Assembly: GCA_003164215.1 (NCBI GenBank)
Contig: PLSR01000017.1
Span: 28,656 to 92,655 of the forward strand
Length of the DNA: 64,000 bases
DNA from: Candidatus Kaiserbacteria bacterium
Lineage (GTDB): Bacteria > Patescibacteriota > Minisyncoccia > Phycocordibacterales > UBA2100
Direction of reading: 5' to 3'
The notes below the pieces were generated by a model. It did not search any database and had not been told where the DNA came from. It worked only from the letters and a program-made list of their open reading frames with translations. Shown here in pieces: positions 7,089 to 57,990 of the stretch (positions are counted from its first letter, which is position 1; every line of letters begins with the position of its first letter). The translations under genes were made by a program, and so were the position numbers.

Positions 7089-7712
7089 ATGCGCTCTGCC
7101 AACCGATCTCGGCTCAGGATGCTGAAGCGCTTCAGCTTCTTTATCTCGATCGTGGTGGTCGCTCTTCTGCTCGCACTGATATTCTTCAGTATTCATGACG
7201 AAGCTTCGGTGCTCACTTACGCACGGAAACAGATCCCGTTACCGACCGCCGAGAACCCTAATTTCCTGATGCAGGTCATGGATTGTTTCCTGCCGACCGC
7301 AGCCGTTTATGGATATGATCTGCGCATCACCGCCGGTTTTCGTTCGTTTGCACAACAGCAACAGATATATGATGAGGGGCGCACAGAGGATGGCAACATC
7401 GTCTCAGAAGCGCCGCCGGGGCACAGCTTGCACAACTATGGGTACGCGGTCGACGTCGTCGATCGGCTGCGGGGGTACGATATCGACTGGGCGCAGTTGA
7501 TACGCATCGGTCAGTATTGCTCGCTCGAATCCGGCGGGCCGGGCGACCTGCCGCATTTTGAATATCGCGGCGGCCTCACGACCGATCAATTCGCCGAAGG
7601 AATGCGGCCGCCGCCCTTGACGTTGCCGTGCGCGGTCATGGCGGAGCGCACGGCCTCGAGTTCGCCGCTTACCATGAGCGATCTCAACGCGTGCGGTGCG
7701 CCGAAGTTTTGA
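7089..7712 (+). CDS. peptidase M15 family (D-Ala-D-Ala carboxypeptidase / VanY-like), membrane anchored
   Basis: N-terminal TM. SxHxxGxAxD-type zinc-ligand motif GHSLHNYGYAVDV. A TATAAT lies immediately upstream (7074..7079). Confidence 0.7.
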   Translation: MRSANRSRLRMLKRFSFFISIVVVALLLALIFFSIHDEASVLTYARKQIPLPTAENPNFLMQVMDCFLPTAAVYGYDLRITAGFRSFAQQQQIYDEGRTEDGNIVSEAPPGHSLHNYGYAVDVVDRLRGYDIDWAQLIRIGQYCSLESGGPGDLPHFEYRGGLTTDQFAEGMRPPPLTLPCAVMAERTASSSPLTMSDLNACGAPKF

Positions 7713-7758
7713 ACTCGACCCAACTTCACCTCTCGATGGAGTGTTATATAATGTAGTC

Positions 7759-8223
7759 ATGCAACCGAGCGAAGCATCCGCGAACCGAACATCAAAGATC
7801 TTCAGATGGGTCCAGATCCTATCCTCGATCGGAGTGCTCCTCGCCCTGTATTTGCTCTGGGAACAGCTCTCTCATTCGCCGTTCAAGCCGTGCGATATCA
7901 ATAGTATCGTGAATTGCGATGCGATCATCTCGGGCGCCGTCTCGAAAACGCTCGGCGTTCCGACGCCGCTCTATGGTCTCATCGGATATATCGTTATTTT
8001 TATCTCGGCGACGTTCCAATGGAAACGCGTGCTCTTAGGGATGGCGACGTTCGGGCTCGCTTTTTGCCTGTGGATCGGATCCATAGAGATCTTCCAACTG
8101 CACGTAGTGTGCCCCGTGTGCATCACCTGCCAGCTCGTCATGATCACGGTGTTCGTGCTCGGGATCCTTCTACAACGAAAGTCCGTGCTTGGAACGGGAG
8201 GGGGTGATACACTTTCTGTATGA
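7759..8223 (+). CDS. vitamin K epoxide reductase (VKOR) family thiol-disulfide oxidoreductase
   Basis: Multi-TM protein with CxxC redox motif (CPVCITC) and loop cysteines (PCDINSIVNCD). ATG at 7759 follows a TATAAT; the longer listed ORF starts at 7696. Confidence 0.7.
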   Translation: MQPSEASANRTSKIFRWVQILSSIGVLLALYLLWEQLSHSPFKPCDINSIVNCDAIISGAVSKTLGVPTPLYGLIGYIVIFISATFQWKRVLLGMATFGLAFCLWIGSIEIFQLHVVCPVCITCQLVMITVFVLGILLQRKSVLGTGGGDTLSV

Positions 8224-18954: not shown

Positions 18955-20166
18955 GTGTTCATGAGAAAGAATTACACCCACGTCATACTCGCAGCACTCA
19001 TTCTTTTCGTCGCACCATTCTCCGCTTCCGCCGCGACGACGTTCGAGGTATCGGGATGGATGCCGTACTGGCGCGCTGCGACGAGCACGAACGATGTGTT
19101 ACCGCACTTGAGCGAGCTCACGGAGATCAACCCGTTCGTGTACTCAATGAGCACGATCGGCACGATCATCGACAACGGCCCGATGACATCGGCAGCATGG
19201 ACCGCTATCGTCGCGGCGGCGAAAGCACAAAAAGTCCGTGTCGTGCCGACCATTATGTGGAGCAATGGAACGGCGATCTACAATGTTTTGAGCAACGCGA
19301 AAACTCGTCAGGCATTGGAAACGAATATCGCAAAGCTTGTAAAGACCAACGGTTACGACGGCATCGACATTGACTTTGAGAACAAGACCGCCGCAACGAA
19401 AGATTATTTCTCACTGTTCCTCAAAGGTCTCTATTCGCGGATGGGCAACAAGTTCGTGACCTGCGACATCGAGGCGCGTACGCCGGTCTCCGCCGAATAC
19501 TACGGCACGGATGTCCCCTCAGGCGCCGGAGAATACGCAAACGACTACGTACAGATCAATAAATACTGCGATCGCGTGCATCTCATGACATACGATCAGC
19601 AGACCGTTGATCAACAGCTGGCCGCCGTTGCCGCTTCTTCGTCCGAGCTCTATGCGCCGGTCGCAGATCCAGCATGGGTGGAGGCAGTCGTTGATCTTGC
19701 AAAACAATCCATCAATCCCAAAAAGATCATTGTCGGCATTCCGACCTATGGATACGAGTATCAAGTGACCGCATATGCGAACAGCCAGTATGTCTATGAC
19801 ATTCTCTGGACCTTCGATCCCGGCTATGCCAAACAGATCGAGATGCAATACGGTGTCACGCCCGTGCGCAATGCCGCCGGAGAAATGACGCTGACCTATG
19901 TGCCGTCTTCATCGCCGGCCGCACCGAGCCCCGCTCTCTCGATCGGTTCGATGGATGGGCTCACTGCAGCGGCCGCCGCGAGCTTGTATGCGACGACCTA
20001 TAATTCACATCTTACGTTCAACCTGCTCGACTGGAGCGATGCACAATCGGTCACCGACAAGGTCGCGCTAGCCAAAGCGCTCGGTGTGCGCGGTGTCGCG
20101 CTCTTCGAATTCGACGGCGGTGAAGATCCCGCGATCTGGAACGCGCTTCAAGGCGTCAAAACCTAG
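18955..20166 (+). CDS. secreted glycoside hydrolase family 18 (chitinase / YaaH-like)
   Basis: Signal peptide. GH18 catalytic motif DGIDIDFE (YDGIDIDFENK). Confidence 0.8.
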   Translation: MFMRKNYTHVILAALILFVAPFSASAATTFEVSGWMPYWRAATSTNDVLPHLSELTEINPFVYSMSTIGTIIDNGPMTSAAWTAIVAAAKAQKVRVVPTIMWSNGTAIYNVLSNAKTRQALETNIAKLVKTNGYDGIDIDFENKTAATKDYFSLFLKGLYSRMGNKFVTCDIEARTPVSAEYYGTDVPSGAGEYANDYVQINKYCDRVHLMTYDQQTVDQQLAAVAASSSELYAPVADPAWVEAVVDLAKQSINPKKIIVGIPTYGYEYQVTAYANSQYVYDILWTFDPGYAKQIEMQYGVTPVRNAAGEMTLTYVPSSSPAAPSPALSIGSMDGLTAAAAASLYATTYNSHLTFNLLDWSDAQSVTDKVALAKALGVRGVALFEFDGGEDPAIWNALQGVKT

Positions 20167-20234: not shown

Positions 20235-21137
20235 TTGTTTTTTTCTGACATCGTGTACAATGGGGGAACTATGTCTGAAGACGCAATGAATAGGCACACA
20301 CATTCACATTCGCATCAGGATGCCCCGTCGCCACAGCCGTCAGTTGTGACGGCAGCGACCGAGCCGGAGCAGGTCGCGACACCTGTCGCGGCGCCCACAA
20401 AACGCGACTGGAGCAATTTGTACACACCTATCGCAATCGTCGTTGCCGGTATTTTCGTCGCAGGCGGCCTTATGGTCGGACTTTCACATGGTGGAACCGG
20501 GGCCACGGCGGGTACAGCACCTGCCGGCGCACAGGCCGCCGCACCGTCCGTCAACATCAAGGATGTGAAGACCGACGGTGAGTCGTATATCGGCAACGCC
20601 AATGCGCCGGTCGTCATGGCGTTCTGGTCCGACTATCAGTGCCCGTATTGCCGAGCGTTCGAAGTCGGGGGCATTCCGCAGATCACGACACCTGCTGCGT
20701 TTCCTGACATCGTAAAAAATTACGTAGATACCGGAAAGCTCAAAGTCGTTTTCAAAGACTACCAGTTCCTCGGACAGAATTCGATAGACGATGGCGAGTA
20801 TGCTCGCGCGATTTGGACATTATACCCGCAGCAATATTTTGCATGGCGCGAGGCAATGTACAACCAGCAGCCCGAAGAGAACAGTCTAAGCGAGGCGGCG
20901 AACAAGTCACATGTCGAGAAAGTCACGTCGTCGATAACTGGTATCAACTTACAAGCGGTTGAGGCGAATATTGCGAAGAATAAGGCGACCTATGACGCCG
21001 CGATGCAGGCAGACGAGGCAGAAGGCGCGAGCTTCGGTATCCAGGGCACGCCGGGATTCATCATAGGAACGACTTTGATCGCGGGAGCAGAGCCGCTTGC
21101 CACCTTCACGGCCGCGATCGACGCTCAACTTAAGTAA
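20235..21137 (+). CDS. DsbA-like thioredoxin-fold thiol-disulfide oxidoreductase, membrane anchored
   Basis: TM helix then WSDYQCPYCRAF (CPYC active site). True start is probably MSEDAMNRH at 20271. Confidence 0.7.
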   Translation: MFFSDIVYNGGTMSEDAMNRHTHSHSHQDAPSPQPSVVTAATEPEQVATPVAAPTKRDWSNLYTPIAIVVAGIFVAGGLMVGLSHGGTGATAGTAPAGAQAAAPSVNIKDVKTDGESYIGNANAPVVMAFWSDYQCPYCRAFEVGGIPQITTPAAFPDIVKNYVDTGKLKVVFKDYQFLGQNSIDDGEYARAIWTLYPQQYFAWREAMYNQQPEENSLSEAANKSHVEKVTSSITGINLQAVEANIAKNKATYDAAMQADEAEGASFGIQGTPGFIIGTTLIAGAEPLATFTAAIDAQLK

Positions 21138-25527: not shown

Positions 25528-26514
25528 ATGATCGAGGAAGCGATCATCGAGCGGGCGCAAAAAGCGATCGATGAACGCGTGTTCCCGGGATGCGTTGTCG
25601 GTGCGGTGTATGCGGATGGCGGGCGCATTATAATTCCACTTGGGTCACTAACCTATGAACGCGTTGCCTCCGAAGTGCGCGCCGCGACCGTGTATGATCT
25701 CGCATCTGTTACGAAATCCATACCTGTCGCATCGCTCGCGCTTGCGTTCACTGCGGAAGGGAAGCTCGCGCTCGCCGATCCTGTGGTCAACCATTTGCCA
25801 GAACTTCAGAACGACTTTGGCACCACGATCGAAGATCTCCTGCGATATCGCGTGCATGGCGTCCAGCTTTCGACCTTGCGTCGTATGACATCTGACGAAA
25901 TTCGAAACTATGTTTTCGAGCGCGGATTCGACGCGCCGCCCGGAGATTCGAACTATACGAATCTTCCCGCATTCGTTCTCGGGATGATCATTGAACGGGT
26001 CGGTGGTGCGTCGCTTGAAACACTTGGTCGATCATATTTCTTCGATCGATTCGATATGCCTGCGACAACATTCTTCCCGGATGCTGCAGATTGCGCTCCG
26101 ACGGAGGTCGACGAACGCGGTGAAGTACGCGGATCGCCGCATGATGAGAGCGCGTATCAATTCGCGATCGCACACGCATGCGCGGGACATGCAGGACTTT
26201 TTTCTACCGTTCCCGACCTCTTGAATTTTCTCGAAGCGCTGCTACGCGCAGACGATGGATTTACGAAATCCATCATGGACGCTGCGGAGGCAGGGCTCGG
26301 TTGGCAAATCGAGGGGGATTTTTTAGGTCATTACGCAGACGTTCGTGCGTTCGGCAAAACAGGATTCACCGGCACCAGTGTCTGTATCGATCCAACCAAA
26401 GGTATCGCGTTCGTCATACTTTCCAATTGTACGTATCCCAAGCGACCGGCGGATAATGCGGCAATAAATTCGTTTCGATCGGACATTGCCGACATCATTC
26501 TCGGATCTATTTAA
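25528..26514 (+). CDS. beta-lactamase-family serine hydrolase (class C / PBP4*-like)
   Basis: SxxK motif in LASVTKSIPVASL and the Transpeptidase/beta-lactamase fold (YTNLPAFVLG, HAGLFST, KTGFTGTS). Confidence 0.8.
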   Translation: MIEEAIIERAQKAIDERVFPGCVVGAVYADGGRIIIPLGSLTYERVASEVRAATVYDLASVTKSIPVASLALAFTAEGKLALADPVVNHLPELQNDFGTTIEDLLRYRVHGVQLSTLRRMTSDEIRNYVFERGFDAPPGDSNYTNLPAFVLGMIIERVGGASLETLGRSYFFDRFDMPATTFFPDAADCAPTEVDERGEVRGSPHDESAYQFAIAHACAGHAGLFSTVPDLLNFLEALLRADDGFTKSIMDAAEAGLGWQIEGDFLGHYADVRAFGKTGFTGTSVCIDPTKGIAFVILSNCTYPKRPADNAAINSFRSDIADIILGSI

Positions 26515-28276
26515 CCGTCACGCTTTTGGCGATGTTGCGCGGCTTGTCCACGTTGTGATCAAGTTCGACCGCCATGTAGTAGGCAAGTAATTGCAAGGGG
26601 ATGATGTTGAGGATCGCGCTCGTCTCCTTGGTATCGGGGACTGCCAGAAATTCATCGAAGTTCTCGTCCGTCTGTGGGGCGATGCCGAAAACTGACGCGC
26701 CTCGGGCGCGAACTTCGTGTATCGCGTTCAATACGCTCGCGCGCACTTCGTCGTTGCTGACCGCCGTGATTACCGAGACCCCCGGCGCCATCAACGTTAT
26801 CGCATAATGTTTGAGGTCTCCCGCAGGGATCGCGTGAGCATGTACGTACGAACCCTCGATGATCTTCACCATACCTTCGCGGATGATCTGCAGGTTCTGA
26901 CCTTTACCCAAGAGATAGAGATGTTCTTTGTGCGCTAGACGTGACGCATGGCCCCTCACTTTGGCAATGAATTTGTCATCCGCGAGCAGTTTCTCGGTCT
27001 CGGTCGCCAGCTTTTTGAGATTTCGTTTTCCCTCGGCCAATTTTCCCTCGACTGCCTTCGCGACGAGGTACCCCCACGCGATCTGCGACACGAAGATCTT
27101 CGTCGACATGACACAGATCTCGGGGCCGGCATTCGCCATGAACTTATGATCCGACAGACGCGTCATCATACTGCCCGGCATATTCACGAAGCTCGCGATG
27201 GTAGCCCTGCGAGCATGTACCAGTTCGAGTACTTCGAGCACATCGGCTGTTTCGCCGCTCTGCGACGGCGCGATGAGAACGTCGCCCTTACTGATCAATG
27301 ATTTGTATTCAAACGCTTCGGCTCCGATGAGCTCCTTTGCGTCGATATGTCCATAAAGCCGAAGATAAAATGCCATTTGCGCTGCTGCGGCACCGGCAGT
27401 ACCCGAACCGATCGTATAGACGCGCCGCGCCCGTTTGATCGCTCGCGCGAGCGCGAGATACGTAGCATCCGATTCTTTGATGACCTGCCGAATGACGAAC
27501 GGCGCCTCGTAGATCTCTTTGAGCATGTAGTGATCATAGGCACCTTTTGAAACCACCACATCTTTGAGGAGGTTTTTTTCATAGACCTGCTTGATCTTCT
27601 TACCGGTCGCAATGCTCGACAGCGTAATCGCTCTTTCACGCACGGCAACCATCTCTCCGTTGTCCAACACGAGGATGGACTTCACGTGGGGGGCGCATGA
27701 GAATACGTCAGACGAAAGATAGATTTCCGATGAGGTCCCCAAGCCGAGAACGAGCGGGGAACCATTGCGTGCAGCGATGATCTCGCCACTTTTCGCGAGC
27801 ACAATGATCGTATTGCGTCCTTCGAGATCTTTGAACGACAATCGTACGGCTTCAGAAAGTGTTTTTGCTTTGCGCATGCGCCGCTCGATAAGTCGCACGA
27901 TGACCTCGGTATCTGTTTCCGAAATGAACTTGAACCCGTCTTTTTGAAGTGACGACTTAAGCGCGGGGGCGTTCTCGACGATACCGTTGTGGGCGAGCGC
28001 GAATGACCTGTCGCTCGAATAATGCGGATGCGCGTTCACATCTGTAACTTTGCCGTGCGTCGCCCAACGCGTATGACCGATACCGATGTGACTTCGTGGC
28101 AAACTCCCGGCGTCATAGCCCACGAGCCCGATATGTTTATCAACGCTGATAGATCCATTGCTCACGACGGCGATGCCCCAGCTGTCATATCCGCGGTACT
28201 CGAGTCGCTGTAAACCTTCTAACACTGCTTCGCGCGCATCACGCGCTGCTCCGGCATACCCAAAAATTCCACACAT
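26507..28276 (-). CDS. glmS: glutamine--fructose-6-phosphate aminotransferase
   Basis: N-terminal MCGIFGY (Ntn Cys), two SIS domains and a C-terminal ...VTVK. Confidence 0.93.
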   Translation of the reverse strand: MCGIFGYAGAARDAREAVLEGLQRLEYRGYDSWGIAVVSNGSISVDKHIGLVGYDAGSLPRSHIGIGHTRWATHGKVTDVNAHPHYSSDRSFALAHNGIVENAPALKSSLQKDGFKFISETDTEVIVRLIERRMRKAKTLSEAVRLSFKDLEGRNTIIVLAKSGEIIAARNGSPLVLGLGTSSEIYLSSDVFSCAPHVKSILVLDNGEMVAVRERAITLSSIATGKKIKQVYEKNLLKDVVVSKGAYDHYMLKEIYEAPFVIRQVIKESDATYLALARAIKRARRVYTIGSGTAGAAAAQMAFYLRLYGHIDAKELIGAEAFEYKSLISKGDVLIAPSQSGETADVLEVLELVHARRATIASFVNMPGSMMTRLSDHKFMANAGPEICVMSTKIFVSQIAWGYLVAKAVEGKLAEGKRNLKKLATETEKLLADDKFIAKVRGHASRLAHKEHLYLLGKGQNLQIIREGMVKIIEGSYVHAHAIPAGDLKHYAITLMAPGVSVITAVSNDEVRASVLNAIHEVRARGASVFGIAPQTDENFDEFLAVPDTKETSAILNIIPLQLLAYYMAVELDHNVDKPRNIAKSVTVK

Positions 28277-40663: not shown

Positions 40664-41032
40664 ATGAAAAAGAAATCAAAAGTTTCTAAGAAGTCGAGCG
40701 CGCGAAAAGTGAGCCGCCCGTCACAGCCGAAGAGTTCTTTTAAAGTCCACCCATTGGCTGATCGTATCGTCGTGAAGCCCGAGGAGGCAATGGATGAACG
40801 ATCACCGTCCGGCATCATTATTCCTGACACCGCCCGCAAAGAGAAGCCGGAACGCGGTGTCGTCGTTGCGGTCGGCGAGGGTAAGCGCAACGAGCGTGGT
40901 GATGTATTGCCGATCCACGTTAAGGTTGGCGACACGGTCATGTTCTCCAAATATGGATTCGATGAGGTGAAGATCGATGATGTGGAGTATTACATTGTTT
41001 CGGAGACGAATATTCTGGCAATTATAAAGTAG
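40664..41032 (+). CDS. groES: co-chaperonin GroES with a Lys/Ser-rich N-terminal extension
   Basis: HPLADRIVVKP...GIIIPDTA...VVAVGEG...GDTVMFSKYG. Confidence 0.9.
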   Translation: MKKKSKVSKKSSARKVSRPSQPKSSFKVHPLADRIVVKPEEAMDERSPSGIIIPDTARKEKPERGVVVAVGEGKRNERGDVLPIHVKVGDTVMFSKYGFDEVKIDDVEYYIVSETNILAIIK

Positions 41033-41048
41033 TAGAAGATTAAACGAA

Positions 41049-41090
41049 CCAAGGTCAGAGCTTGGGATCCCTAAAGCTCTGAGCTTGGTG
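41049..41090. repeat. intergenic double-hairpin palindromic repeat, copy 4 (between groES and groEL, hairpins in swapped order)
   Basis: ccaaggtcagagcttgg plus ctaaagctctgagcttgg. Confidence 0.65.
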
Positions 41091-41101
41091 CAACACCTAA
41101 T

Positions 41102-42748
41102 ATGGCAAAACAAGTGATTTTTGATGCAGAAGTACGATCGGCCCTGAAGCGCGGCGTCGATATCGTCGCCAAGGCGGTCTCGGTCACCATCGGTCCGCGT
41201 GGCCGCAATGTCGCCCTCGACAAGTCGTGGGGAAGTCCGACCATCACCAACGACGGCGTTTCGATCGCGAAGGAAATAACGCTCGCCGACAAGTTCGAGA
41301 ACATGGGTGCTTCGATTGTGAAGGAGGTAGCGACCAAGACCAACGACAAGGCCGGCGACGGTACGACGACCGCCGTCATCCTCGCGCAGGCGATCATTCA
41401 CGAAGGTCTCAAGCGAACCGCCTTGGGCGCCAACAGTATGATGGTTCGCCGCGGTATCGAAGCCGCCGCCAAAGACACCGTCGAAGAATTGAAAAAGATG
41501 GCGAAGCCGGTCAAAGGTACGAGCGACATCAAGCAGGTCGCGACGATCGCGGCGGAGAGCGAGGAGCTCGGCGCCACGATCGCCGACATCGTTGAGAAAG
41601 TCGGTAAGGATGGCGTCGTCACCGTGGAGGAATCGCAATCGTTCGGCATCGAATCGGAATTCGTCGAAGGGATGGAATTCGACAAGGGTTATGTATCTGC
41701 CTACATGATCACCAATAGTGAACGCATGGAGGCCGAAGCGAAGGATGTCCCGATCCTCATCACCGACAAGAAGATCTCGACGGTCAAAGATATTCTGCCG
41801 CTTCTCGAAAAAGTCGCGCAGACCGGCAAGAAGGATCTCGTCATCATCGCTGATGATGTCGATAGCGAAGCGCTTGCCACGTTCGTCGTCAACAAATTGC
41901 GTGGCATCTTCAACGTGCTCGCGATCAAAGCGCCGGGCTACGGTGATCGCAAGAAGGAAATTCTCGCGGACATCGCGATCCTGGTCGGCGGCCAGGTGAT
42001 CTCCGAAGATCTCGGTCTCAAGCTCGAGAATACGGAGCTTGCGCAACTCGGACGTGCCGCACGCATCGTCGCGACGAAGGATTCGACCGTGATCGTCGGC
42101 GGTAAGGGGAAGAAAGATGATATCGGCAAACGCGCGGCATCTCTGCGGTCACAGCTCGAGAATACGACGTCGAAGTTCGACAAGGAAAAGCTTAACGAGC
42201 GCATCGCGAAACTTCTCGGCGGCGTCGCTGTCATCAAAGTCGGTGCTGCGACGGAGACCGAAATGAAATATCTCAAGGACAAGATCGAGGACGCGGTCAA
42301 TGCGACCAAAGCTGCGATCGCCGAAGGCATCGTGCCGGGCGGCGGAGCTGCGCTCGCGAAAGTCGCTCACAAACTCGCAAAAAAAGTCACCGTCGACGCA
42401 CACGATGAATTCTCTGTCGGCTATCGTGTACTTATATCCGCTCTCAGCGCGCCGCTCTTGCAGATCGCGCTGAATGCCGGTCGCGAAGACGGACAGGTGA
42501 TCTTGCGTGATATCACCGCAAAGGGCGGGGCGTTCGGTTATGACGCCTCTAAAGACACTGTCGAGCCGACGATCGTGGATATGTTCGAAGCGGGGATCAT
42601 CGATCCGGTGAAGGTCACGCGCTCGTGCATCGAGAACGCCGCGTCAGCCGCCGCAGTATTGCTCACAACCGAAGCAGCCGTCGCTGATATTCCTGAAGAA
42701 AAGAAAGCCCAGAATGGAGGTATGCCGGGGATGGGGGACATGGATTAA
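41102..42748 (+). CDS. groEL: chaperonin GroEL
   Basis: [26 protein letters not shown]...GPRGRNV...DGTTTA... with a C-terminal [10 protein letters not shown] tail. Confidence 0.95.
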
Positions 42749-43060: not shown

Positions 43061-46000
43061 ATGCGTATCATGAACCGCAGACGTGGCGTTGCTTTCGGCT
43101 GTTGGGCATTAAGCACACTCATTTTCGTTGTCGGCTGTTTTCCAATTTTGGTTGAAGCACAATCCACGGATGTTGGCAGCTTATTGCCATCATGGCTGAT
43201 GGGGACTCCTCCCGCATCCACCGATACTGCCGATCTGCAATGTAGTAGTGATGGAGTCTACACCTGTGACTATCCAAAAATTGAGAATAATCAGCAGTGC
43301 CTTCGCGGCAAAACCTGCGCCGAGGTAAAAGACGGGTGTGTCATTTCCGGCGTGTGCGATAGGCCGAATCACTGCAACGACACGAGTGCCTGTGGCAAGG
43401 CGCCGGAGAAACCTACGGTACCGGTAATGCCGTCGCCTTCGAACTCCGGTATAACGGATACGCCGCAACAAAGTTCGGTCGGTTATCCCCAAAATCAGTC
43501 TTCAGACGTAACGCCGACGCCCGCACAGTCTGCAAGTGTCCCGACGTATGGATCATTAGATACGACGCAGTCCCAGACACAATCGCAACAATCATCGTTC
43601 AATCTATCTACCGACGGAAGTAACTATTCCGCGCCGACGGGGCAGGGTGTAAGTCCACTCACTGATGGCACACTCCAGGACGTATCGACAGTGCCGATAC
43701 CAGTCGATAGCAGAGTACCGCCCCTTTCAGGAGCGCAAGACACTGGAGGATCATCAGAAGGATCGAACGGTGTGTCAACTTTCCCGGTTGAAAATGGCCC
43801 GACGCCACAGCAGGCGGCACCTGCCTCGAGTTGCGGCTTCATCTGCTCCGCTGAGAATACCGTTTCATCGGCTTACAGTGCTGCTGCGAGTTGGATCTCG
43901 AACGAGATCTCTCCACCAGCGCCGACTGTTCCAAGCGATGCTTCGCTCAATAGCGCTCAGGCCCAGATCGATACTCCTCAATACTACGATCCGAACGCTG
44001 CAACCACCCCTGACGGCACACCTGCGATCACCGATGCGACCAAACAGGAGATGGTTCCGCTCATGCAAAACCAAGCAGACAGCATGACGAATGAGATGGT
44101 GCAGAACAATGCGCAGATACTAGCGCTGCAGGATCCGAACAATGGTATGGATCCGAATAGCGCGCAGAATGCAATCCAGGATCTCAATCAGCGGAACGCT
44201 TATTTGCAGGACCAACTCGATAAGGTGAATTCCGGCATCACCGCGCTCAATACGGGCGGACAGCTTTCGCCTGACGTACAACAGCTTGCGCAGACAGTGC
44301 AGGACGGCCAAGGTGCGCGCTCGGCGGTGCTTGACGCCGCTTCCGGCGGTCTTGCACAGGCGAGTGCATCCAATTTCGAAGCCGCAAAGCTCGCGATAAC
44401 TGATCCGAGTCTTTCGAATATTGCGTCCGCCGGAATGCACGCTTTCGAAAGCGGAGCTGACTACCTCGGTTCAGGAGTTGCGAGCCTTGTGAACACAACG
44501 TGTCAGGGAGTCGGCGTTTGCGGCCAATCGCCTGCTGAAGCAGTGGCCGCCTGGGCTGACCCGACTGCATCAAAAGTGAACACGATCGTGGCGGGAACAC
44601 AGCTGGCGGTCATGGCCGCACCATTTGCTGGCGAAGCAGTCGATGCGATCAGAGCTGCCGGAGCTGTCGACACCGGAGTAACCGCCTTTGTTTCGGACTC
44701 CGCAGTTGCGCGCACAATTGCTGATAGTGCAGGAGGTTGGACCGCATCTCTCGAAGCGCCAACGTTCGAAGCGGCCCAGACTACGGGGGGAGTGTACTCT
44801 ATTTCAGATTCTGCAGGTACCTTTGCGAATACAATTACTGACATACCGTCGGCGGCCGAACCACTTCCTGTGGGGGCATCTGCGGCACCGGCAGACGTCG
44901 CCCCAGCAGCAGCTCCCGTCGAAGAATTGTCAGCTGCCCAATTTTCAGATCAGATTGATCCGGCAATTACAGCTGAACTTGAACAAGCTAACGGTGCGGG
45001 TTCAGCACAGACGACGCAACCGGCACCGGAAGCCGCCCCGTCCGATGCGGCGGCTCCTACAGAAGCGGCGACACAAACCGCCCCTCCCATATCACCAACG
45101 TTTTCAGATGCGATGGATTACGTCTCGGCTCAAGCGCAGGCGCTCAAAGAAACCGTCACGGGCGGGATCAGCTCGATCGAGTCCGATATTAGCGACTACG
45201 TCAATTCACAGTTCGGAAATACAGAACCATCTGCGCTTACAGAGACGCCACTGCTCGCTCCCGTTTCAGAGGGGACCTCAAACGCGATGCAAAACGTCAT
45301 TGATCAAGCGGGGCAGCTCAAACTTTCTGCGACTATTCCTGCAGACGTGCCGGCAGGATCTGTGGCGCCCGAAGGAGCCGCACCTGCAGCTACGGAAGCA
45401 CCAGCACCAGCTGCACCCGAAGTATCGGCTCCTGCCGCCGACACTGAATCGTCGGCTGTACCCGCTGCTCCTGCCGCACAATCTACTCAAACCGTTTCAG
45501 ATGCGATCGCGACCGCCTACAATAATGTTCAGAACGACATAATCAACTTCAGCCAAGATATTGGCCAAAAATTGCAAGCATTCCAGTCCACGCTTTCCGA
45601 CGCATTCGGTTCGTCACCGGTTGAAACTGCACCTGGGGCGACAGTGCCATCAGCAGTAGAACCCGCTCCGGCCGCAGGTACCTCACCATCGACACCGGCT
45701 TTGGGTGACCTTTCAGGCGTCAGTGCGGGATCGAACATATCGCTGGAGACTGCGAACGATAATTATTTGATGAGTAGGGTAGTGGCGGGAGGGGTGGTCG
45801 GAGGCGCAGTCACGTTCGCGGCCATTGATTGGAGTTCCGTTTCTGTGCCTGCAACGTCGCCGGTACAGCCGGGTGATGTCGTCACCGAGATAGATCTTCA
45901 ACCACAAACTGAACCAACGCCCGCACCTACTCCTGCGGCAACCCCAGCCCCTGCTCCGACTCCTTCTCCAACTGTTATCGCAGTAGAGTCTGGGCCTGCT

Positions 46001-48991
46001 GCACCGGTGACACCAGTCGTAGCATCTGCGCTCCCAGCTCCATTGCCAACGCCTACTCCCGTCCCGACACCTTCGACCCTTGCCAATCCCGAAATGGTCG
46101 CATTCCTGAATAGTGATAGTCAGTACACTCCTCCGATCGAACCCATTACATCTGGCGAGAAGAATGTCATGACGGCATACCAAGCACCAATTGAGAACCC
46201 TGCATCTCCAGGTGCCGCACCATCGACGTCATACCCAAGTCCCCAAATGGTCTCATTCCTGACGAGCGAGAGTCAGTACACCCCTCCGATCGAACCCATT
46301 ACAGCAGGCGAGAAGAATGGCATGACGGCGTATCAGAATCCCATTGAGAGTGCTCCTGCCGCACCAAGTGGAGCGTCATCGGACCAAACTCAGGCCAAGA
46401 TCAACGCACCCGAGTACTATGGACCGCCGTATGTCCAACCTTCCGCGCCACCTACGCCCACACCAACCGCTATTGCATCGGCGGTTCCTCCGGAAGCGGA
46501 CATGTCGAACGGTTCCGCTCCAACTCCAACCTCCGCGTCGGCGGCATCTTCTCCAGCCCCAACACCCACACCGAGTGCTGCCGCTCCCGCAAGTACTCCT
46601 CCTGCGTCGACAGAAGGATCTACTCCAGCACCGACTCCTACACCTACTCAGACATCCGCCCCAACAGCTGCGCGGGCACCGGCGCCCACGGCGGGCACAA
46701 CGCCGACGCCAATACCGACGGCAACACCCGCATCTACACCTTCACCTGCGGCGACACCTGCTCCTGCAAAAACTCCTGTACCCAATCCGACACCCGCTCC
46801 AAAACCGGCTCCGACAAAATTTGCCCAGGCAATCCCGAACGAATCCGGGAAACCGTTTCAGACCGCCAGTGGTCAGGCGCTCGCCGACGCCACTGGTGTA
46901 GCCTGTGCGGCGATCGGCTGCGATGCGGCGCTCGTGCAAAAAGCACTCGCCGGTGTTTGTTCGACCGAGTCCGGCTGCAACGCACAAGTGCTGCATGTCG
47001 GTAACGGGTATCAGGGATTGTTCCAGGCCGATTCTGTCTCCACAGGGGCCGCGATGACCGCATTGAAGCAGATAGCACAATCACCGAAGCTCTCGACCGC
47101 TCAAAAGGCCCAGATCACGTCGGTCATCAATACGGCACAAGCCCAAATAAATGCGAAACAGGATCCAAATAAAGACTCTGTGCTTGGGGCGTGGATCGGC
47201 GTCGGCTATCAAACGGCCGCTGGTTCATTATCGAAGATCGGTACGGTCACCAACGACCCGGGACTTGCCGCGGCATACGGTATGCTCGCGCAGATCGCGC
47301 CCGATACGTTCTACAATTTCAGCCCTAATAAGCGGATAAGCACGATCAGCGTACTGCATTTACAAGGTAATAATTACTGGATCCCGTTCGGCGCTACGGC
47401 GGCGGATGCGGCACGAGTAATACTCGCAACGGTCGGACAAAAGATCACTACCGGCATAAACTGGAGCGGACAATTTTCTCCGAGCGTGTCATCGGCACCG
47501 AACCCGGCCGCTGCGCCTCCCGCTCCCGCCGCGACACCGCCCGTCACCCGATCTCTTTCAACTCCTCCCCCCGCGCCGACCAAAGTTGCTTCTGGCCCTG
47601 CTCCGGCCGCTTCTGCGCCCCCGAGTTCCGGTCCGTACACAAAAGATAACGTTACGATTGTCGGCGACAGCATCGGGCAGGGGACGTCAGGCTGTTCATC
47701 GGCGGTCGGCACGGCATGTGCCGGGACCACCTTCAAGGGAAATGCGGTGAGCGGTGCGGCGATGGGAGCAATGCTGAAGCAGATCAATGCGTTACCGAAT
47801 GGATCGAAGATCGCGGTCATTGCGGGAACGAATAATTACGGCGAAACGCCCGCTCAGATAGGGCAGGACGTTAAAGCACTGATCGATGCCGCTAACGCAA
47901 AAAATATTCAGATCGTCGCGTGGGCGGGGGCATCGTTAGATCCGAAAAATCCGACACTTGATGTGCAGTTCGCGGCTGCCGATACTGAGGTCAAGAACGC
48001 GCTGCCATCGAATATCCCCTTCGTCGATCTACGTTCGTCAAGTCTTGATCCCTATCGAGATGGCTATCATTACACTGCCGCAGGATATAAAGCGATCGGC
48101 GACATGATCATCGCTCAAGCGAATACCCCTGCATCTGACTCAGGTGTTGCGGTCGCATCGAGTGTTCGGCCAGCCGCTCCCGCTCCCACTCCGGCGGTGT
48201 CCGCTCCCGATGCGTCGTCCGCCCTTCAAGTACCACCACCGGCCGCAACACCGTCAAGCGCCATCGCGGAGGCCTCTTCGGCGTCGACTGCCGACTTTGC
48301 CGCAACAGAACGAGATGTTGCGAGCGCCAAGATACAACTTGGACAAACAAAACAGACGATAACCGCCGACAAATCCCAGCTCGCATCGCTCCAGACGCAG
48401 GAGGCTGCTACCGTGAAGAAAATAGCTGCGTATCAAAACACTGCGCAAGCAACAACCGATCTCTCGTCTGCAAAAGCGGGACTCGATGTATTGAACACTT
48501 TGGGAAGAAGCAAAACGGAGCCGACTGCTGCCGAACTGCCAATAATGACGAGGGCGGCGGCCGCGACCGTTCAGCTCGCGAAAGAGATCGGGGATCCCGC
48601 GCTTTCCGGTCAAATCAATGAGTATGTTACCGCTCTCGCGAACTTAAAAGCGGAACCGTCCTCCTTTACCAAGCTCACTGATCTTTGGGCTGCAGAATCG
48701 AAGGGGGCGGCGCTTGTCACGGCAATATCAACGGCCTTGGACAACACGAGTAAAAATCTTGCAGCGAGCGGGAGCCTCGCGAGTTTACAGACCACATCGG
48801 CGAAACTCGCGACGAACATCGCCAACCTCAATACGACGATCGCTTCGCTGCAGCAAACGGAAGTACAGCAGGTCGCAGAGGTCACGAATATGACCAATCT
48901 GTTGCATCAAAAAGAAGAACTTGCCGCCAGCGCTCCAACGTTGCCACACATATGGAAACCGCCGACAACTCCGTCTGCCACGACCCCGTAA
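43061..48991 (+). CDS. giant (1976-aa) secreted multidomain protein: Cys-rich N-terminal module, long Pro/Ala/Thr/Ser-rich region, lysozyme-like (SLT/VirB1-type) transglycosylase domain, SGNH/GDSL hydrolase domain, C-terminal coiled coil
   Basis: Signal peptide. Ten Cys at about aa 60-110. Internal ~40-aa duplication (PEMVAFLNSDSQYTPPIEPIT(S/A)GEKN...). CSTESGCNAQVLHVGNGYQGLFQ matches the ES...GLxQ transglycosylase core (nt ~46850-47450). SGNH blocks GDSIGQG, GAAMG, GTNN and DGYHY (nt ~47640-48110). Heptad-rich tail. All antisense ORFs inside are compositional artefacts. Confidence 0.85.
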   Translation: MRIMNRRRGVAFGCWALSTLIFVVGCFPILVEAQSTDVGSLLPSWLMGTPPASTDTADLQCSSDGVYTCDYPKIENNQQCLRGKTCAEVKDGCVISGVCDRPNHCNDTSACGKAPEKPTVPVMPSPSNSGITDTPQQSSVGYPQNQSSDVTPTPAQSASVPTYGSLDTTQSQTQSQQSSFNLSTDGSNYSAPTGQGVSPLTDGTLQDVSTVPIPVDSRVPPLSGAQDTGGSSEGSNGVSTFPVENGPTPQQAAPASSCGFICSAENTVSSAYSAAASWISNEISPPAPTVPSDASLNSAQAQIDTPQYYDPNAATTPDGTPAITDATKQEMVPLMQNQADSMTNEMVQNNAQILALQDPNNGMDPNSAQNAIQDLNQRNAYLQDQLDKVNSGITALNTGGQLSPDVQQLAQTVQDGQGARSAVLDAASGGLAQASASNFEAAKLAITDPSLSNIASAGMHAFESGADYLGSGVASLVNTTCQGVGVCGQSPAEAVAAWADPTASKVNTIVAGTQLAVMAAPFAGEAVDAIRAAGAVDTGVTAFVSDSAVARTIADSAGGWTASLEAPTFEAAQTTGGVYSISDSAGTFANTITDIPSAAEPLPVGASAAPADVAPAAAPVEELSAAQFSDQIDPAITAELEQANGAGSAQTTQPAPEAAPSDAAAPTEAATQTAPPISPTFSDAMDYVSAQAQALKETVTGGISSIESDISDYVNSQFGNTEPSALTETPLLAPVSEGTSNAMQNVIDQAGQLKLSATIPADVPAGSVAPEGAAPAATEAPAPAAPEVSAPAADTESSAVPAAPAAQSTQTVSDAIATAYNNVQNDIINFSQDIGQKLQAFQSTLSDAFGSSPVETAPGATVPSAVEPAPAAGTSPSTPALGDLSGVSAGSNISLETANDNYLMSRVVAGGVVGGAVTFAAIDWSSVSVPATSPVQPGDVVTEIDLQPQTEPTPAPTPAATPAPAPTPSPTVIAVESGPAAPVTPVVASALPAPLPTPTPVPTPSTLANPEMVAFLNSDSQYTPPIEPITSGEKNVMTAYQAPIENPASPGAAPSTSYPSPQMVSFLTSESQYTPPIEPITAGEKNGMTAYQNPIESAPAAPSGASSDQTQAKINAPEYYGPPYVQPSAPPTPTPTAIASAVPPEADMSNGSAPTPTSASAASSPAPTPTPSAAAPASTPPASTEGSTPAPTPTPTQTSAPTAARAPAPTAGTTPTPIPTATPASTPSPAATPAPAKTPVPNPTPAPKPAPTKFAQAIPNESGKPFQTASGQALADATGVACAAIGCDAALVQKALAGVCSTESGCNAQVLHVGNGYQGLFQADSVSTGAAMTALKQIAQSPKLSTAQKAQITSVINTAQAQINAKQDPNKDSVLGAWIGVGYQTAAGSLSKIGTVTNDPGLAAAYGMLAQIAPDTFYNFSPNKRISTISVLHLQGNNYWIPFGATAADAARVILATVGQKITTGINWSGQFSPSVSSAPNPAAAPPAPAATPPVTRSLSTPPPAPTKVASGPAPAASAPPSSGPYTKDNVTIVGDSIGQGTSGCSSAVGTACAGTTFKGNAVSGAAMGAMLKQINALPNGSKIAVIAGTNNYGETPAQIGQDVKALIDAANAKNIQIVAWAGASLDPKNPTLDVQFAAADTEVKNALPSNIPFVDLRSSSLDPYRDGYHYTAAGYKAIGDMIIAQANTPASDSGVAVASSVRPAAPAPTPAVSAPDASSALQVPPPAATPSSAIAEASSASTADFAATERDVASAKIQLGQTKQTITADKSQLASLQTQEAATVKKIAAYQNTAQATTDLSSAKAGLDVLNTLGRSKTEPTAAELPIMTRAAAATVQLAKEIGDPALSGQINEYVTALANLKAEPSSFTKLTDLWAAESKGAALVTAISTALDNTSKNLAASGSLASLQTTSAKLATNIANLNTTIASLQQTEVQQVAEVTNMTNLLHQKEELAASAPTLPHIWKPPTTPSATTP

Positions 48992-49062: not shown

Positions 49063-49623
49063 ATGATCATTCTCTATATTGTTGTCGCGGTCGTTTTGAT
49101 TATTCTCGTTTGGCTTATGGGTTCGTATAACGGTTTCGTCACGCTTACCAATCGAGTCAAAGAAGCGCTCTCGGACATCGATGTGCAATCGAAACGCCGC
49201 TTCGATCTCATCCCGAATCTCGTCGAGACGGTCAAGGGCTACGCCGCGCATGAATCAGGTACCTTGGAGAAGGTGACCGAAATGCGCACCGCCGCGATGA
49301 GCGCGACGACGCCGGCCGGCAAAGCGCAAGCCGACGATTTGCTGAGCGGCGCCCTCAAATCGCTCTTCGCTGTTTCCGAAAATTACCCCAACCTCAAGGC
49401 GAACGAGAACTTCCTCGAGTTGCAGCGTCAGCTTGAAGACACCGAAAATAAAATGCAGGCCGCGCGCCGTTTCTACAACAGCGTCGTCGTGGATCTCAAC
49501 ACGCGATTGCAATCATTCCCTGGCAACATCGTCGGCAGTACGTTTGGCTTCAAGGCAGGTGATTTCTTCGCGCTCAGTGATGCTGATGCCGCAGCCAAAG
49601 AGCCGGTGAAAGTGCAGTTCTAG
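49063..49623 (+). CDS. lemA: LemA family protein
   Basis: N-terminal TM, then YNGFVTLTNRVKEALSDIDVQSKRRFDLIPNLV...NYPNLKANENF..., typical of LemA. Confidence 0.85.
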   Translation: MIILYIVVAVVLIILVWLMGSYNGFVTLTNRVKEALSDIDVQSKRRFDLIPNLVETVKGYAAHESGTLEKVTEMRTAAMSATTPAGKAQADDLLSGALKSLFAVSENYPNLKANENFLELQRQLEDTENKMQAARRFYNSVVVDLNTRLQSFPGNIVGSTFGFKAGDFFALSDADAAAKEPVKVQF

Positions 49624-54330: not shown

Positions 54331-54337
54331 ATGCAGA

Positions 54338-54422: not shown

Positions 54423-54498
54423 CCCGTAGTAGTTTTTATCGGTGCTATGCTGAGCCCCTCGGCTGTTGTGTACACCATGAAGTAGTCATAGAATCCAG

Positions 54499-56658: not shown

Positions 56659-57990
56659 TTACTCGATCGTCACAGCGCCATTGTTGACTTTGAAGTTCGA
56701 CTTAAAGCACCCCATCAGCTCGCGCTTCTCCTCGTTGGTGCCCTCCTTGAGGATGTACTTTGCATACGTCCTGATATTGATCTCCTCATGCTTTGCATCG
56801 GGATCTGAGAGACCAAGTACGGTGCGCTGGAATTTATTGTGCCGTTTCAATTCGTCCTCGAATTTCATCTGCACGTTGATCTGGTTGATATCGATCTGAT
56901 CGATAATCTTGAGCAGTTGCTCTACGAGTTCCTCCTCACGCAGATACGTATTGCCTTTGCACTGTTTGTCACGCGTACGTCCGCATCCGTAGTAGACGTA
57001 ACGAGCGGTCGTGCCATCCTTGCGCTGCTTGTACTTTTCCTCAGCGCTGATGCACGATCCGCACTTGCCGCACGTCATGAGTTTCGTGAAGGCAAACTCG
57101 TGCGATTCCCGCTGTATGTTGTCTCGCTTGAGCTGTGCCTGCACCTTTTCGAATAATTCCTTGGGCACCAATGGTTCGTGCTTGCCCTGATACCAGTTGC
57201 CGCTATTTCGCGGATACTCAAATATGCCGTGGTAGAAGGGATTGGAGAGAATGCGGTACATATTGCCGAGCGAGAGCGGTTTCTTACCTTGTGTCTGAAA
57301 GATTAGTTCGAATCGGAGCCAGTGATACAATCGCGGCCCTGACCATTTTTCATACCCGACTTTCTCGAACATCTTCCGTATCACCGGCCCGCGATCCGGA
57401 TCGATGATGACCTCGCACTTCCGGTCCATTCGCCGTTCGTTGAGATATCCGGTCAACGTGCTTCCGGGCCGCAGTCCCATCTCGCAGCGCGTTCTAAGTC
57501 CTCGCTTTACGTTTACGCCGCGATTGTCGTTCTCGAGTTTTGCCTGACTCCCCAGAATCATCAGGAGGAACTTCTCGTTCGGGTTATTACGGAACGACTG
57601 GCTATACGTACGGATCTCCATGAGTACTCCCGCGTCCATGAGATCGATGACTTTCCCGAGGTCGCCAGCGTTGCGTGAGATGCGATCCGGTGCCCATGTC
57701 AGTATCGCGTTGAACTTTCCCGTTTTCATTTCATCGACGATCTCGTTGAAGACGGGACGCTGCCCTGCTTCTTTGGCTGAGTGGCTCTCGCGCTTCATCG
57801 CGACGATCTCGAGCCCTTCGCGCTCCGCGAGTTGGAGCATCTCCTTGATCTGGGAATCGATGGAGAGCACCTGCCGCTCCTCGCTCTCGGTGCTCTTGCG
57901 AGCGTAGAGGCAAAACTTGAGCGGCACGATCTTCAATTCCGGTCTCCCGATCTGCCCTCCGGGGAATGGTCTCTCGATGACGTTGTCCAT
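56659..57990 (-). CDS. large serine recombinase (integrase)
   Basis: Catalytic domain YARKSTESEERQVLSIDSQ (Ser nucleophile), recombinase domain and a C-terminal zinc ribbon (CGKCGSCISAE...YYGCG). Confidence 0.85.
   Translation of the reverse strand: MDNVIERPFPGGQIGRPELKIVPLKFCLYARKSTESEERQVLSIDSQIKEMLQLAEREGLEIVAMKRESHSAKEAGQRPVFNEIVDEMKTGKFNAILTWAPDRISRNAGDLGKVIDLMDAGVLMEIRTYSQSFRNNPNEKFLLMILGSQAKLENDNRGVNVKRGLRTRCEMGLRPGSTLTGYLNERRMDRKCEVIIDPDRGPVIRKMFEKVGYEKWSGPRLYHWLRFELIFQTQGKKPLSLGNMYRILSNPFYHGIFEYPRNSGNWYQGKHEPLVPKELFEKVQAQLKRDNIQRESHEFAFTKLMTCGKCGSCISAEEKYKQRKDGTTARYVYYGCGRTRDKQCKGNTYLREEELVEQLLKIIDQIDINQINVQMKFEDELKRHNKFQRTVLGLSDPDAKHEEINIRTYAKYILKEGTNEEKRELMGCFKSNFKVNNGAVTIE

Follow-up and report, generated by a model that had tools for sequence, protein, structure and literature searches.

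A 64,000-nucleotide stretch of DNA from a Candidatus Kaiserbacteria bacterium (assembly GCA_003164215.1, contig PLSR01000017.1, positions 28,656 to 92,655 of the forward strand; hereafter the window) carries, between groESL and lemA, a giant gene for a secreted modular protein of 1976 amino acids (aa) with two putative enzyme domains in tandem. On the evidence of a predicted structure, the first of these, which we call domain X, is a new sequence family in the lysozyme-like superfamily, structurally nearest to SLT/GH23 enzymes and not a member of the Pfam SLT family. The second is an SGNH domain of the PatB/DUF459-like clade. We give an even chance to the reading that this Sec-secreted, disulfide-stabilised protein would act on peptidoglycan in two steps, the SGNH domain de-O-acetylating N-acetylmuramic acid (MurNAc) and the adjacent lysozyme-fold domain cutting the glycan strand. 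Residue numbers refer to the giant protein; relatives are denoted by P numbers and their loci by L numbers.

An earlier note, made from the sequence alone, had described the gene as a single open reading frame (ORF) taking up about 9% of the window in a Candidate Phyla Radiation (CPR)-type organism, and both points hold. The ORF is uninterrupted and accounts for 9.3% of the window. Four independent metagenome contigs, of which the longest falls in the 0.2–1 Mb class, carry the identical 1976-aa product, which makes a frameshift or a chimeric assembly unlikely. The GroEL protein encoded just upstream is 78–81% identical to those of Patescibacteria metagenome-assembled genomes (MAGs) labelled Candidatus Kaiserbacteria, Paceibacterota or Parcubacteria group and ~55% identical to GroELs of other phyla, which places the source organism, by sequence, among the Patescibacteria/CPR bacteria of the Kaiserbacteria/Paceibacteria type, tiny organisms that probably depend on a host.

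Domain X adopts a predicted lysozyme fold

An exhaustive phmmer search with aa 1252–1976 against 1.84 billion cluster representatives found 37 proteins, and about 15 of these share a domain of ~220 aa with 26–59% identity, making the domain X family a rare one (~15 clusters in 1.84 billion). Another homologue search with domain X missed even the query itself, and the SLT-like segment of the relative P0004 gave no match either; the exhaustive search of representatives worked. In an alignment of 14 domain X sequences, E1303, Y1317, G1319 and Q1322, which make up the pattern ES...YxGxxQ within the TES...YQGLFQ motif at aa 1302–1322, are invariant, as are P1369, Q1411, A1413, P1414, G1444 and G1465, and S1304 following the putative catalytic E1303 is present in 13 of the 14. 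The segment Y-Q-G-L-F-Q with its invariant Y, G and Q is consistent with motif II of SLT enzymes (G-L-M-Q), and a motif III-like AYN(K/Q/R)QGW occurs in P0006 and P0008–P0011.

AlphaFold2 run with the 14-sequence alignment produced a confident all-alpha model of domain X (pLDDT 92.6, pTM 0.89), in which a helix (model residues 34–49) has E1303 at its C-terminal end and a small hairpin contains YQGLFQ; a single-sequence prediction of aa 1252–1725 was uninformative (pLDDT 46.6). When the fold of the model was compared with known structures, the first 17 matches were all lysozyme-fold enzymes. The matches include Slt, MltE, fungal muramidases, Slt70, Cj0843c, phi29 gp13, MltC, MltF, the phi6 P5 lysin and lysozyme-like chitinases, the best structural matches being phage enzymes. 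Foldseek ranks the same families first, albeit weakly, with a best E-value of 0.08 in the PDB and of 1e-3 among viral models, where the matches are jumbo-phage lytic transglycosylases and endolysins. Consistently, when the domain was aligned by hhalign with five E. coli SLT domains (Slt70, MltE, MltC, MltD and MltF) and the SLT-like segment of P0004, the best local alignment, a weak one, brought its ES and YQGLFQ into line with the catalytic ES and GLMQ motifs in all five E. coli enzymes.

Sequence searches gave a different picture. The whole 1976-aa protein yields nothing or low-complexity matches only against Pfam, NCBIfam and the PDB, and segment-wise scans are needed because bias correction hides domains in the whole-protein Pfam scan. 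Scanned as a segment (aa 1252–1474), domain X, like that of a relative, has no match to PF01464 even at E <= 10 (gathering score 21.3 bits), and domain X has neither an NCBIfam match nor a notable PHROGs match. No lysozyme-like chain was found among PDB sequences by phmmer or by the family profile, a profile search of genome contigs with a narrowed domain X alignment gave no match, and a scan of viral contigs and tblastn against phage genomes found no sequence relatives. The region had earlier been called an SLT-type transglycosylase: the modelled lysozyme fold and the ES...YQGLFQ motif agree with this, whereas Pfam SLT, NCBIfam and PDB sequences do not, and the profile check proposed for this first domain showed no significant similarity, so that at the level of sequence the assignment fails.

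Two pairs of cysteines mark the family. C1282 and C1287 are present in all 13 domain X sequences that cover the region, and the pair C1300/C1306, which flanks E1303, is complete in 10 sequences and entirely absent in 4, suggesting that C1282–C1287 and C1300–C1306 form disulfides. Paired, covarying cysteines, together with genes for VKOR and a DsbA-like protein that lie in the window as the earlier note had said, support its view that the disulfides form outside the cytoplasm.

The SGNH domain belongs to a PatB-like clade

The segment aa ~1520–1690 matches Lipase_GDSL_2 (PF13472) above the cut-off (35.4 bits against 32.9, E 2e-8) over profile positions 2–178 of 178. Block I is G1535-D-S1537, block III is G1589-T-N1591-N and block V is D1667-G-Y-H1670, and the G, D, S, G, N and H of these blocks are invariant in 21 aligned relatives. 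The GDS(I)...GxND...DxxH domain recognised by the first reading is therefore real, as the PF13472 threshold is passed and the motifs GDS (1535–1537), GTNN (1589–1592) and DGYH (1667–1670) are all in place. The block II Gly is present in this protein (VSGAA) and in its closest relatives, and Ser or Asn stands there in several family members. The domain is minimal (~165 aa), with no insertion and no obvious lid, and contains the cysteine pair Cys1545/Cys1553.

A profile of the 21 relatives searched against all PDB sequences has its best match in N. gonorrhoeae PatB (7trr/7tjb, E 9e-13), followed by chains named 'Acetyltransferase' (6wn9/6vjp, E 2e-5), which we take to be OatA C-terminal domains, and by C. 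jejuni PatB (8tlb, E 3e-5). The Ape1 esterase structures (4k3u/4k7j) are matched at E 0.017 over part of the domain only, and weaker matches include lysophospholipase L1/TesA-type enzymes. The profile's 120 top-ranking database relatives are small proteins of single-domain build with PF04311 (DUF459), nearly always together with PF13472; those named by source are from Alphaproteobacteria, and none of the 120 has a lysozyme-like domain. The SGNH domain of the giant protein taken alone has no PF04311 match in Pfam. As judged from its sequence, the domain falls in the SGNH branch that handles the 6-O-acetyl group of MurNAc, the sequence being silent on whether the group is added or removed. The label 'SGNH esterase' given to it earlier therefore stands as to SGNH membership, while 'esterase' goes beyond the data, the closest enzyme being the O-acetyltransferase PatB.

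The fusion of domain X to SGNH is found only in P0001–P0003 among the sequences examined, with P0004 as an SLT variant. In P0004, a borderline SLT match (PF01464, E 4.7e-4, 20.2 bits against the 21.3 cut-off) occupies the slot of domain X directly before an SGNH domain that is 56–58% identical to the present one (PF13472, 41.6 bits). This swap of one glycan-cleaving module for another speaks independently for the function assigned to domain X. The remark in the earlier note that this domain combination is not a described family is in agreement with the lack of a lysozyme-like domain among the 120 best SGNH relatives.

A fast-evolving family in the groESL–lemA locus

The gene order of the locus is SBP_bac_5, (SecG), groES, groEL, the giant gene, lemA and htpX. 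The groES–groEL frame is also found in L002, L003, L089, L090, L092 and L011, positional orthologues follow groEL in L002, L003, L011, L089 and L092, and lemA follows the giant gene also in L002 and L011. P0004 lies between groEL and lemA, P0009 and P0012 follow groESL, and L011, a Kaiserbacteria MAG, encodes a 2301-aa protein with domain X (E 7e-19 with HMMER filters off) next to lemA. P0007 adjoins the gene for orotidine 5'-monophosphate decarboxylase instead, a gene that is also near the present giant gene. Full-length orthologues in one ORF (P0004, P0009, P0012 and that of L011) span 1383–2301 aa. P0002, which follows groESL as well, has in front of it a 788-aa ORF, the N-terminal half of an orthologue that is split. 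In L003 (3273–9724), this 788-aa ORF contains the signal peptide, the Cys-rich head and the middle module, and it is separated by ~170 nt from a 1305-aa ORF with domain X, SGNH and a further C-terminal region; the split could be real, a pseudogene or a sequencing error.

Across the loci, GroES, GroEL and LemA are mostly 72–83% identical, whereas the giant protein is 23–30% identical in its head and middle part, 33–59% in domain X and 56–58% in SGNH, and its spacer and tail cannot be aligned. The Cys-head giants are a lineage-specific family that evolves much faster than its neighbours in the fixed slot groES–groEL–giant gene–lemA, and no earlier description of the family was found in the literature searched. 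The cargo varies as well: Amidase_2 lies downstream of domain X in P0008, P0009 and P0010, with a weak CHAP match in P0010, and P0018 and P0022 contain PG_binding_1. Large ORFs near groEL in L004, L006, L009, L017, L042 and L025 have the signal peptide and the Cys head and lack the present catalytic domains. Modules of the 3D/MltA type in the L006 and L009 giants and of the RlpA type in L004 were read by eye; Pfam gave them no support and they are not claimed.

In L089 (14462–22381; GCA_043780835.1, contig JAYWCB010000015.1), P0009 (2126 aa) is directly followed by a second Cys-head giant gene encoding 5318 aa, which the hidden Markov model (HMM) of the head recognises at E 2.8e-11. The Cys-head family can thus duplicate in tandem and reach a much larger size.

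The gene context bears on two proposed origins. No type IV secretion system (T4SS) or pilus genes adjoin the giant genes at any of the loci, and no secretion genes were found at the seven loci examined. The association with VirB1 that had been proposed for the first domain was rejected on this ground, as no T4SS genes stand beside the giant gene at any of these loci. A prophage origin of the giant gene was also rejected, because the terminase and recombinase islands of the window are far off and the gene sits in a conserved frame of core genes. The 312-nt intergenic region upstream of the giant gene contains no structured RNA, and no notable promoter or terminator was found in it.

Head, middle module, spacer and tail

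The N-terminus has a basic n-region (RRR), the most hydrophobic segment of the protein and the site VEA↓QS. Relatives have ordinary Sec signal peptides with AxA-type cleavage sites at the same place, followed by an ADxxC motif, and these features together confirm the signal peptide that the first reading had assigned. A PROSITE-style lipobox pattern matches at Cys26 (...FVVGC26), a position at which none of 13 relatives has Cys; lipoprotein anchoring was therefore rejected, the match probably being coincidental. Cys14 and Cys26 belong to the signal peptide, so that the supposed 10-Cys module is in fact one of 8 Cys (aa 61–111). Outside the signal-peptide region, the protein contains this cluster and five close pairs, namely 258/262, 481/487, 1282/1287, 1300/1306 and 1545/1553. 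The head pattern ADxxC...KxC...GxC...C is kept across 14 giant proteins, and the head HMM recovers giant ORFs outside its training set, namely those of L017, L042 and L025, the second ORF of L009 and the second gene of L089. The head has no relative in Pfam, PDB sequences or PHROGs.

The region aa 52–602 is kept in P0004, the positional orthologue, at 30% identity over 611 aa. It includes a middle module of Q/N-rich amphipathic helices, with a hydrophobic periodicity of 3.5 residues at aa 361–470, followed by a Gly/Ala-rich part with the Cys481/Cys487 pair; the module (aa 320–605) has no relative in PDB sequences, Pfam or PHROGs. The Pro/Ala/Thr/Ser-rich spacer, at aa ~606–1255, cannot be aligned to any orthologue. 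Of the ~1200-aa spacer described earlier, the part at aa ~606–1255 is thus confirmed as spacer, whereas aa ~52–602 is not, being conserved with P0004 and containing the middle module. The internal duplication, put at ~40 aa, is present as two units of ~50 aa (aa ~1003–1053 and 1053–1105) with ~70% identity.

Two further features of this part of the protein were observed. The spacer contains at aa 904–922 (45770–45826) a Gly-rich hydrophobic segment, MSRVVAGGVVGGAVTFAAI, with a Kyte-Doolittle value of 1.57, which is borderline for a transmembrane helix, and P0004 has a similar Gly-rich hydrophobic segment, VAGGAGIAGGLAGGVTAY, at the equivalent place. A true transmembrane helix there would put the enzyme domains in the cytoplasm, in conflict with their disulfides. 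The motif S..QAQ(I/K)(D/N)xP(Q/E)YY(D/G)P occurs twice, ~800 residues apart, at aa 296–313 (43946–43999) and aa 1107–1124 (46379–46432), and both copies mark the beginning of a new section of the protein.

The tail consists of two heptad-like amphipathic stretches (aa ~1745–1800 and ~1870–1955; 3.5-residue periodicity with z up to 6.7) connected by a linker containing Pro and Gly. The heptad-like periodicity ascribed to it before is real, but it falls into two separate stretches rather than one coiled coil of ~250 aa. The tail is common to P0005 (46% identity), P0013 and, weakly, P0022, and beyond weak matches to coiled-coil Pfam families it has no relatives in Pfam, PDB sequences or PHROGs. 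Its C-terminal 15 aa (48944–48988) include an end motif, W[KQ]P[PL]TT, common to this protein, P0005 and P0013. With no hydrophobic segment after it, the motif does not qualify as a classical sortase or PEP-CTERM signal and might serve as a recognition tag.

Proposed function and alternative explanations

Domain X would be a glycan-strand cleaver, either a lytic transglycosylase or a muramidase, acting through Glu1303, a residue placed where a helix ends and held by the putative C1300–C1306 disulfide, with the invariant Y-x-G-x-x-Q as the equivalent of SLT motif II. The PatB-like SGNH domain, with a complete putative triad, Ser1537/His1670/Asp1667, and Asn1591, would strip the 6-O-acetyl group from MurNAc; removal is the most likely direction because there is no membrane acetyl donor outside the cell. 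Lysozymes are blocked, and lytic transglycosylases precluded, when MurNAc is 6-O-acetylated, and the acetyl group has first to be removed by SGNH esterases such as Ape1 (PMC6174289; bioRxiv 10.1101/2021.09.23.461501). Therefore, the fused pair could open an O-acetylated wall that is closed to either domain alone. The Pro/Ala/Thr/Ser-rich linker of ~650 aa may be flexible and give reach, and the head, the middle module and the helical tail are presumably for retention or assembly. Display of the protein on the cell surface, like both catalytic activities, the direction of the SGNH reaction and above all a host-cell wall as the target, is what we infer, whereas the ORF, SGNH membership, the computed fold of domain X, residue conservation, synteny, rarity and taxonomy are matters of observation or computation.

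Several observations weigh against this two-step wall-opening function. None of the sequence models identifies domain X as an SLT or lysozyme domain, its Foldseek E-values are weak (0.08 against the PDB), the hhalign alignment is not significant alone (probability 2.4%) and is meaningless in global mode, and SLT motif III (AYNxG) is not kept in this protein, which has LHLQGNNYW at that place. By profile, the SGNH domain resembles the transferase PatB far more than the esterase Ape1, and the triad Asp is missing in the three closest relatives, P0002–P0004. A surface anchor was not identified: there is no LPXTG, no C-terminal transmembrane segment and no conserved lipobox. The computed data do not separate a host wall from the cell's own wall as the substrate, and the window also carries several ordinary wall-maintenance genes.

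A host-cell wall rather than the cell's own wall is a plausible target, as suggested by the CPR lifestyle, by fast evolution and cargo swapping in a conserved gene frame and by the tandem paralogue in L089. Patescibacterial lytic transglycosylases at the surface have been proposed to compromise host envelopes (PMC11665869). A possible though unlikely alternative is that the protein is a self-directed autolysin, its domains acting on the producer's own peptidoglycan in growth, in daughter-cell separation or in making room for pili or secretion machines, and its size reflecting a structural role in the envelope or a surface layer. Lytic transglycosylases are classical 'space-making' autolysins, and Ape1 and LtgA act on the own wall in Neisseria (PMC6174289, PMC7083599). 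The giant gene, moreover, has core genes (groESL, lemA, htpX) as its neighbours and a chromosomal position that is conserved, in a window that also encodes VanY, a PG_binding_1 protein, a beta-lactamase-fold protein and an S41 peptidase. However, housekeeping autolysins are usually small and conserved, whereas this gene evolves far faster than its neighbours; cargo swaps between close relatives and the tandem duplication in L089 form a pattern more typical of proteins that face another organism, and the extreme rarity of domain X would be odd for an essential wall function.

The affinity of the SGNH domain to PatB raises the question of whether it is a PatB/OatA-like O-acetyltransferase, for example one that shields the producer's wall from the lysozyme-like neighbour domain or modifies a surface polymer, which we consider improbable. 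The far better profile score of PatB than of Ape1 and the DUF459 domain (PF04311) of the relatives would fit such a role, as would the Ser or Asn that replaces the block II Gly in several family members, a feature tied to transferases (PMC12148441). On the other hand, this protein and its closest relatives have Gly at block II. PatB requires an acetyl-Tyr on the C-terminus of its MBOAT partner PatA (PMC12148441), and the annotated ORFs of the 64-kb window include no MBOAT or AT3 acetyl donor; a domain ~1500 residues from the N-terminus of a secreted protein would also be badly placed for a membrane donor, and acetylated MurNAc would inhibit the adjacent glycan-cleaving domain (PMC6174289).

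It is quite improbable that the SGNH domain is a lipase or phospholipase that hits the target membrane after its lysozyme-like neighbour has breached the wall. Lipases and lysophospholipases do occur in the GDSL/SGNH superfamily, the weaker PDB matches include enzymes of the latter type, and a host-damaging role of phospholipases has been proposed for Patescibacteria (PMC11665869), but the best matches are carbohydrate O-acetyl enzymes and no lid or hydrophobic insertion is obvious in the minimal domain. An artefact of assembly or annotation, with genes fused by a frameshift or low-complexity sequence open by chance, is barely credible, since the split orthologue of L003 and the long alternative-frame ORFs that low-complexity DNA also yields are outweighed by the identical product on four contigs, the conserved modules in one frame on both sides of the spacer and the full-length one-ORF orthologues.

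If the two-step wall-opening function is placed in its genomic setting, a wider reading, less likely than not, may be put forward tentatively: the Cys-head genes next to groEL could be a hypervariable host-interaction locus of Kaiserbacteria-type CPR bacteria, in which a conserved secreted scaffold displays interchangeable wall-breaching cargo. Domain X, canonical SLT, amidase, CHAP, PatB-like SGNH and PG-binding modules would then diversify with the wall chemistry of the host, in analogy to phage tail lysins or polymorphic effectors, and the giant protein would be a physical tool with which uncultivated episymbionts open O-acetylated host peptidoglycan for attachment or feeding. To our knowledge, host attachment and resource extraction by CPR/Patescibacteria are poorly understood, most of all in uncultivated Paceibacteria. 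If this reading is correct, domain X would represent a new family of lytic transglycosylases whose catalytic Glu is clamped by a disulfide. The fusion of domain X to SGNH would permit attack on O-acetylated, lysozyme-resistant walls, and the groESL-adjacent slot is a candidate marker locus for the study of host specificity in metagenomes. The domain X family is missed by current sequence models and is thus absent from surveys of CPR wall hydrolases; even if the giant protein is an ordinary autolysin, the family would still fill a gap in CPR cell-wall biology.

Features of the giant gene and other genes of the window

The positions of the modules described above, together with those of the conserved neighbours and of the two genes for disulfide formation, are listed in Table 1.

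Table 1. Positions of the giant gene, its modules and related genes in the 64-kb window
Feature	Position	Strand	Basis or remark
Giant gene, 1976-aa secreted modular protein	43061..48991 (stop codon included)	+	Single uninterrupted ORF
Signal peptide, aa 1–33 (MRIMNRRRG..., hydrophobic stretch, VEA↓QS)	43061..43159	+	Top Kyte-Doolittle segment, 2.14, aa 13–31
Cys-rich head module, aa ~57–112, 8 Cys (61, 69, 80, 86, 93, 99, 105, 111)	43229..43396	+	Cys pattern, head HMM
Conserved middle module, aa 320–605	44018..44875	+	Kept in P0004 and the 788-aa ORF of L003
Lineage-specific Pro/Ala/Thr/Ser-rich spacer, aa ~606–1255	44876..46825	+	Composition per 100 aa
Tandem duplication of ~50 aa, aa ~1003–1053 and 1053–1105	46067..46375	+	Local alignment score 172 (BLOSUM62), ~70% identity
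Domain X, aa ~1256–1475, sequence-novel predicted lysozyme fold (SLT/GH23-like)	46826..47485	+	Putative catalytic Glu1303 (codon 46967–46969)
SGNH (GDSL_2) domain, aa ~1530–1690, PatB/DUF459-like clade	47648..48130	+	PF13472 above cut-off, catalytic blocks
SGNH catalytic residues (putative)	Ser1537 47669–47671; Asn1591 47831–47833; Asp1667 48059–48061; His1670 48068–48070	+	
C-terminal helical tail, aa ~1735–1976, ending ...WKPPTTPSATTP	48263..48988	+	Hydrophobic periodicity
groES–groEL, conserved upstream frame	40664..42748	+	Pfam Cpn10; GroEL translation
lemA, conserved downstream frame	49063..49623	+	Pfam LemA
VKOR	7696..8223	+	PF07884, E 1.5e-23
DsbA-like thioredoxin	20235..21137	+	PF13462, E 6.4e-25; PF01323, E 1.4e-8

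Several further envelope-related genes cluster at 7089–26514. A VanY D-Ala-D-Ala carboxypeptidase gene (7089..7712) overlaps that of VKOR, a 590-aa PG_binding_1 protein is encoded at 15907..17679, a GH18 protein (18955..20166) is encoded beside the DsbA-like gene, and a beta-lactamase-fold protein at 25528..26514. An ORF of 449 aa at 14373–15722 (+) unites an S41 (tail-specific) peptidase with a DnaJ (J) domain, an unusual combination of a secreted-type protease with a cytoplasmic co-chaperone domain.

Two structured RNAs were observed. A full-length LOOT RNA (Rfam RF03000, 64.8 bits against a gathering score of 46.4) at 289–404 (+) is a motif of the small-RNA type just upstream of the ORF 419..1123, and a glmS ribozyme (RF00234, 52.6 bits) at 28289–28482 (-) lies directly upstream of glmS (26507..28276, -), which is the expected arrangement, here in a CPR genome. 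At 1886–5122 (-), an ORF resembling a terminase large subunit (Terminase_6C) stands beside a fusion of ParB with an N6/N4 DNA methylase, and this segment, at the start of the window, is probably a prophage or mobile-element remnant. An island of the mobile or defence type at 53335–62188 contains a LAGLIDADG ORF abutting tRNA-Ser(GGA) at 54338–54424, followed by DUF3644, an HNH endonuclease, a serine recombinase (56659..57990, -) and two N6/N4 DNA methylases.

Comparison with known systems

The kinds of activity proposed here are already known, as is the pairing of a lysozyme-fold domain with a second wall-active domain in VirB1-like TraG and PrgK and in phage lysins. New are the domain X family, its fusion to a PatB-like SGNH domain, the Cys-head family with its groESL slot and the exchange of cargo between orthologues. 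Compared with the family-1 lytic transglycosylases of PF01464/GH23, such as phage phiKZ gp144 and E. coli Slt70, MltE, MltC and MltF, domain X has no detectable sequence-profile similarity, is larger (~220 aa), has additional helices between motif II and motif III and, in this protein, lacks motif III AYNxG. It also has two family-specific putative disulfides, one flanking the putative catalytic Glu, and all its known occurrences are in giant proteins of CPR bacteria.

Predatory or episymbiotic bacteria also have giant multi-domain proteins, for example the 'Archaeovorins' of Omnitrophota, which are very large, secreted, occasionally contain an SLT-type domain and have been proposed to bind and degrade the walls of prey (bioRxiv 10.1101/2023.11.21.568195). 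They come from another phylum, are much larger (tens of thousands of aa) and have other domain sets, and no sequence relationship to the giant protein was detected. VirB1-like two-domain hydrolases of monoderm T4SSs, which have been surveyed in Patescibacteria (PMC12102498), resemble the giant protein in that a secreted lytic-transglycosylase-like domain is joined to a second wall-active domain. However, TraG of pIP501, PrgK of pCF10 and their patescibacterial homologues have a recognisable SLT domain with CHAP, M23 or LysM and are linked to virB4, whereas the giant protein has no HMM-level SLT, an SGNH partner and no T4SS nearby.

PatB of N. gonorrhoeae and C. jejuni (structures 7TJB, 7TRR and 8TLB; PMC12148441) and DUF459 proteins (PF04311) have SGNH blocks I, III and V in common with the present domain. 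PatB is a free periplasmic enzyme working with the MBOAT protein PatA (PMC12148441), whereas the present domain is embedded in a 1976-aa secreted protein beside a putative glycan-cleaving domain. A comparable functional logic is at work in Neisseria, where a lytic transglycosylase, LtgA, is paired with an SGNH enzyme directed at the 6-O-acetyl of MurNAc, Ape1; the two bind and stimulate one another (PMC7083599), and removal of the acetyl group has to precede cleavage (PMC6174289). Ape1, one structure of which is 4K7J (NmApe; PMC6174289), carries a CBM35 insertion (bioRxiv 10.1101/2021.09.23.461501) that is absent from the present SGNH domain, and the Neisseria enzymes are separate proteins that act on the own wall, whereas the present pair is covalently fused. 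There is about an equal chance for and against the giant protein, with its enzyme pair at the end of a long, presumably flexible linker, being in effect a covalent version of the LtgA–Ape1 partnership.

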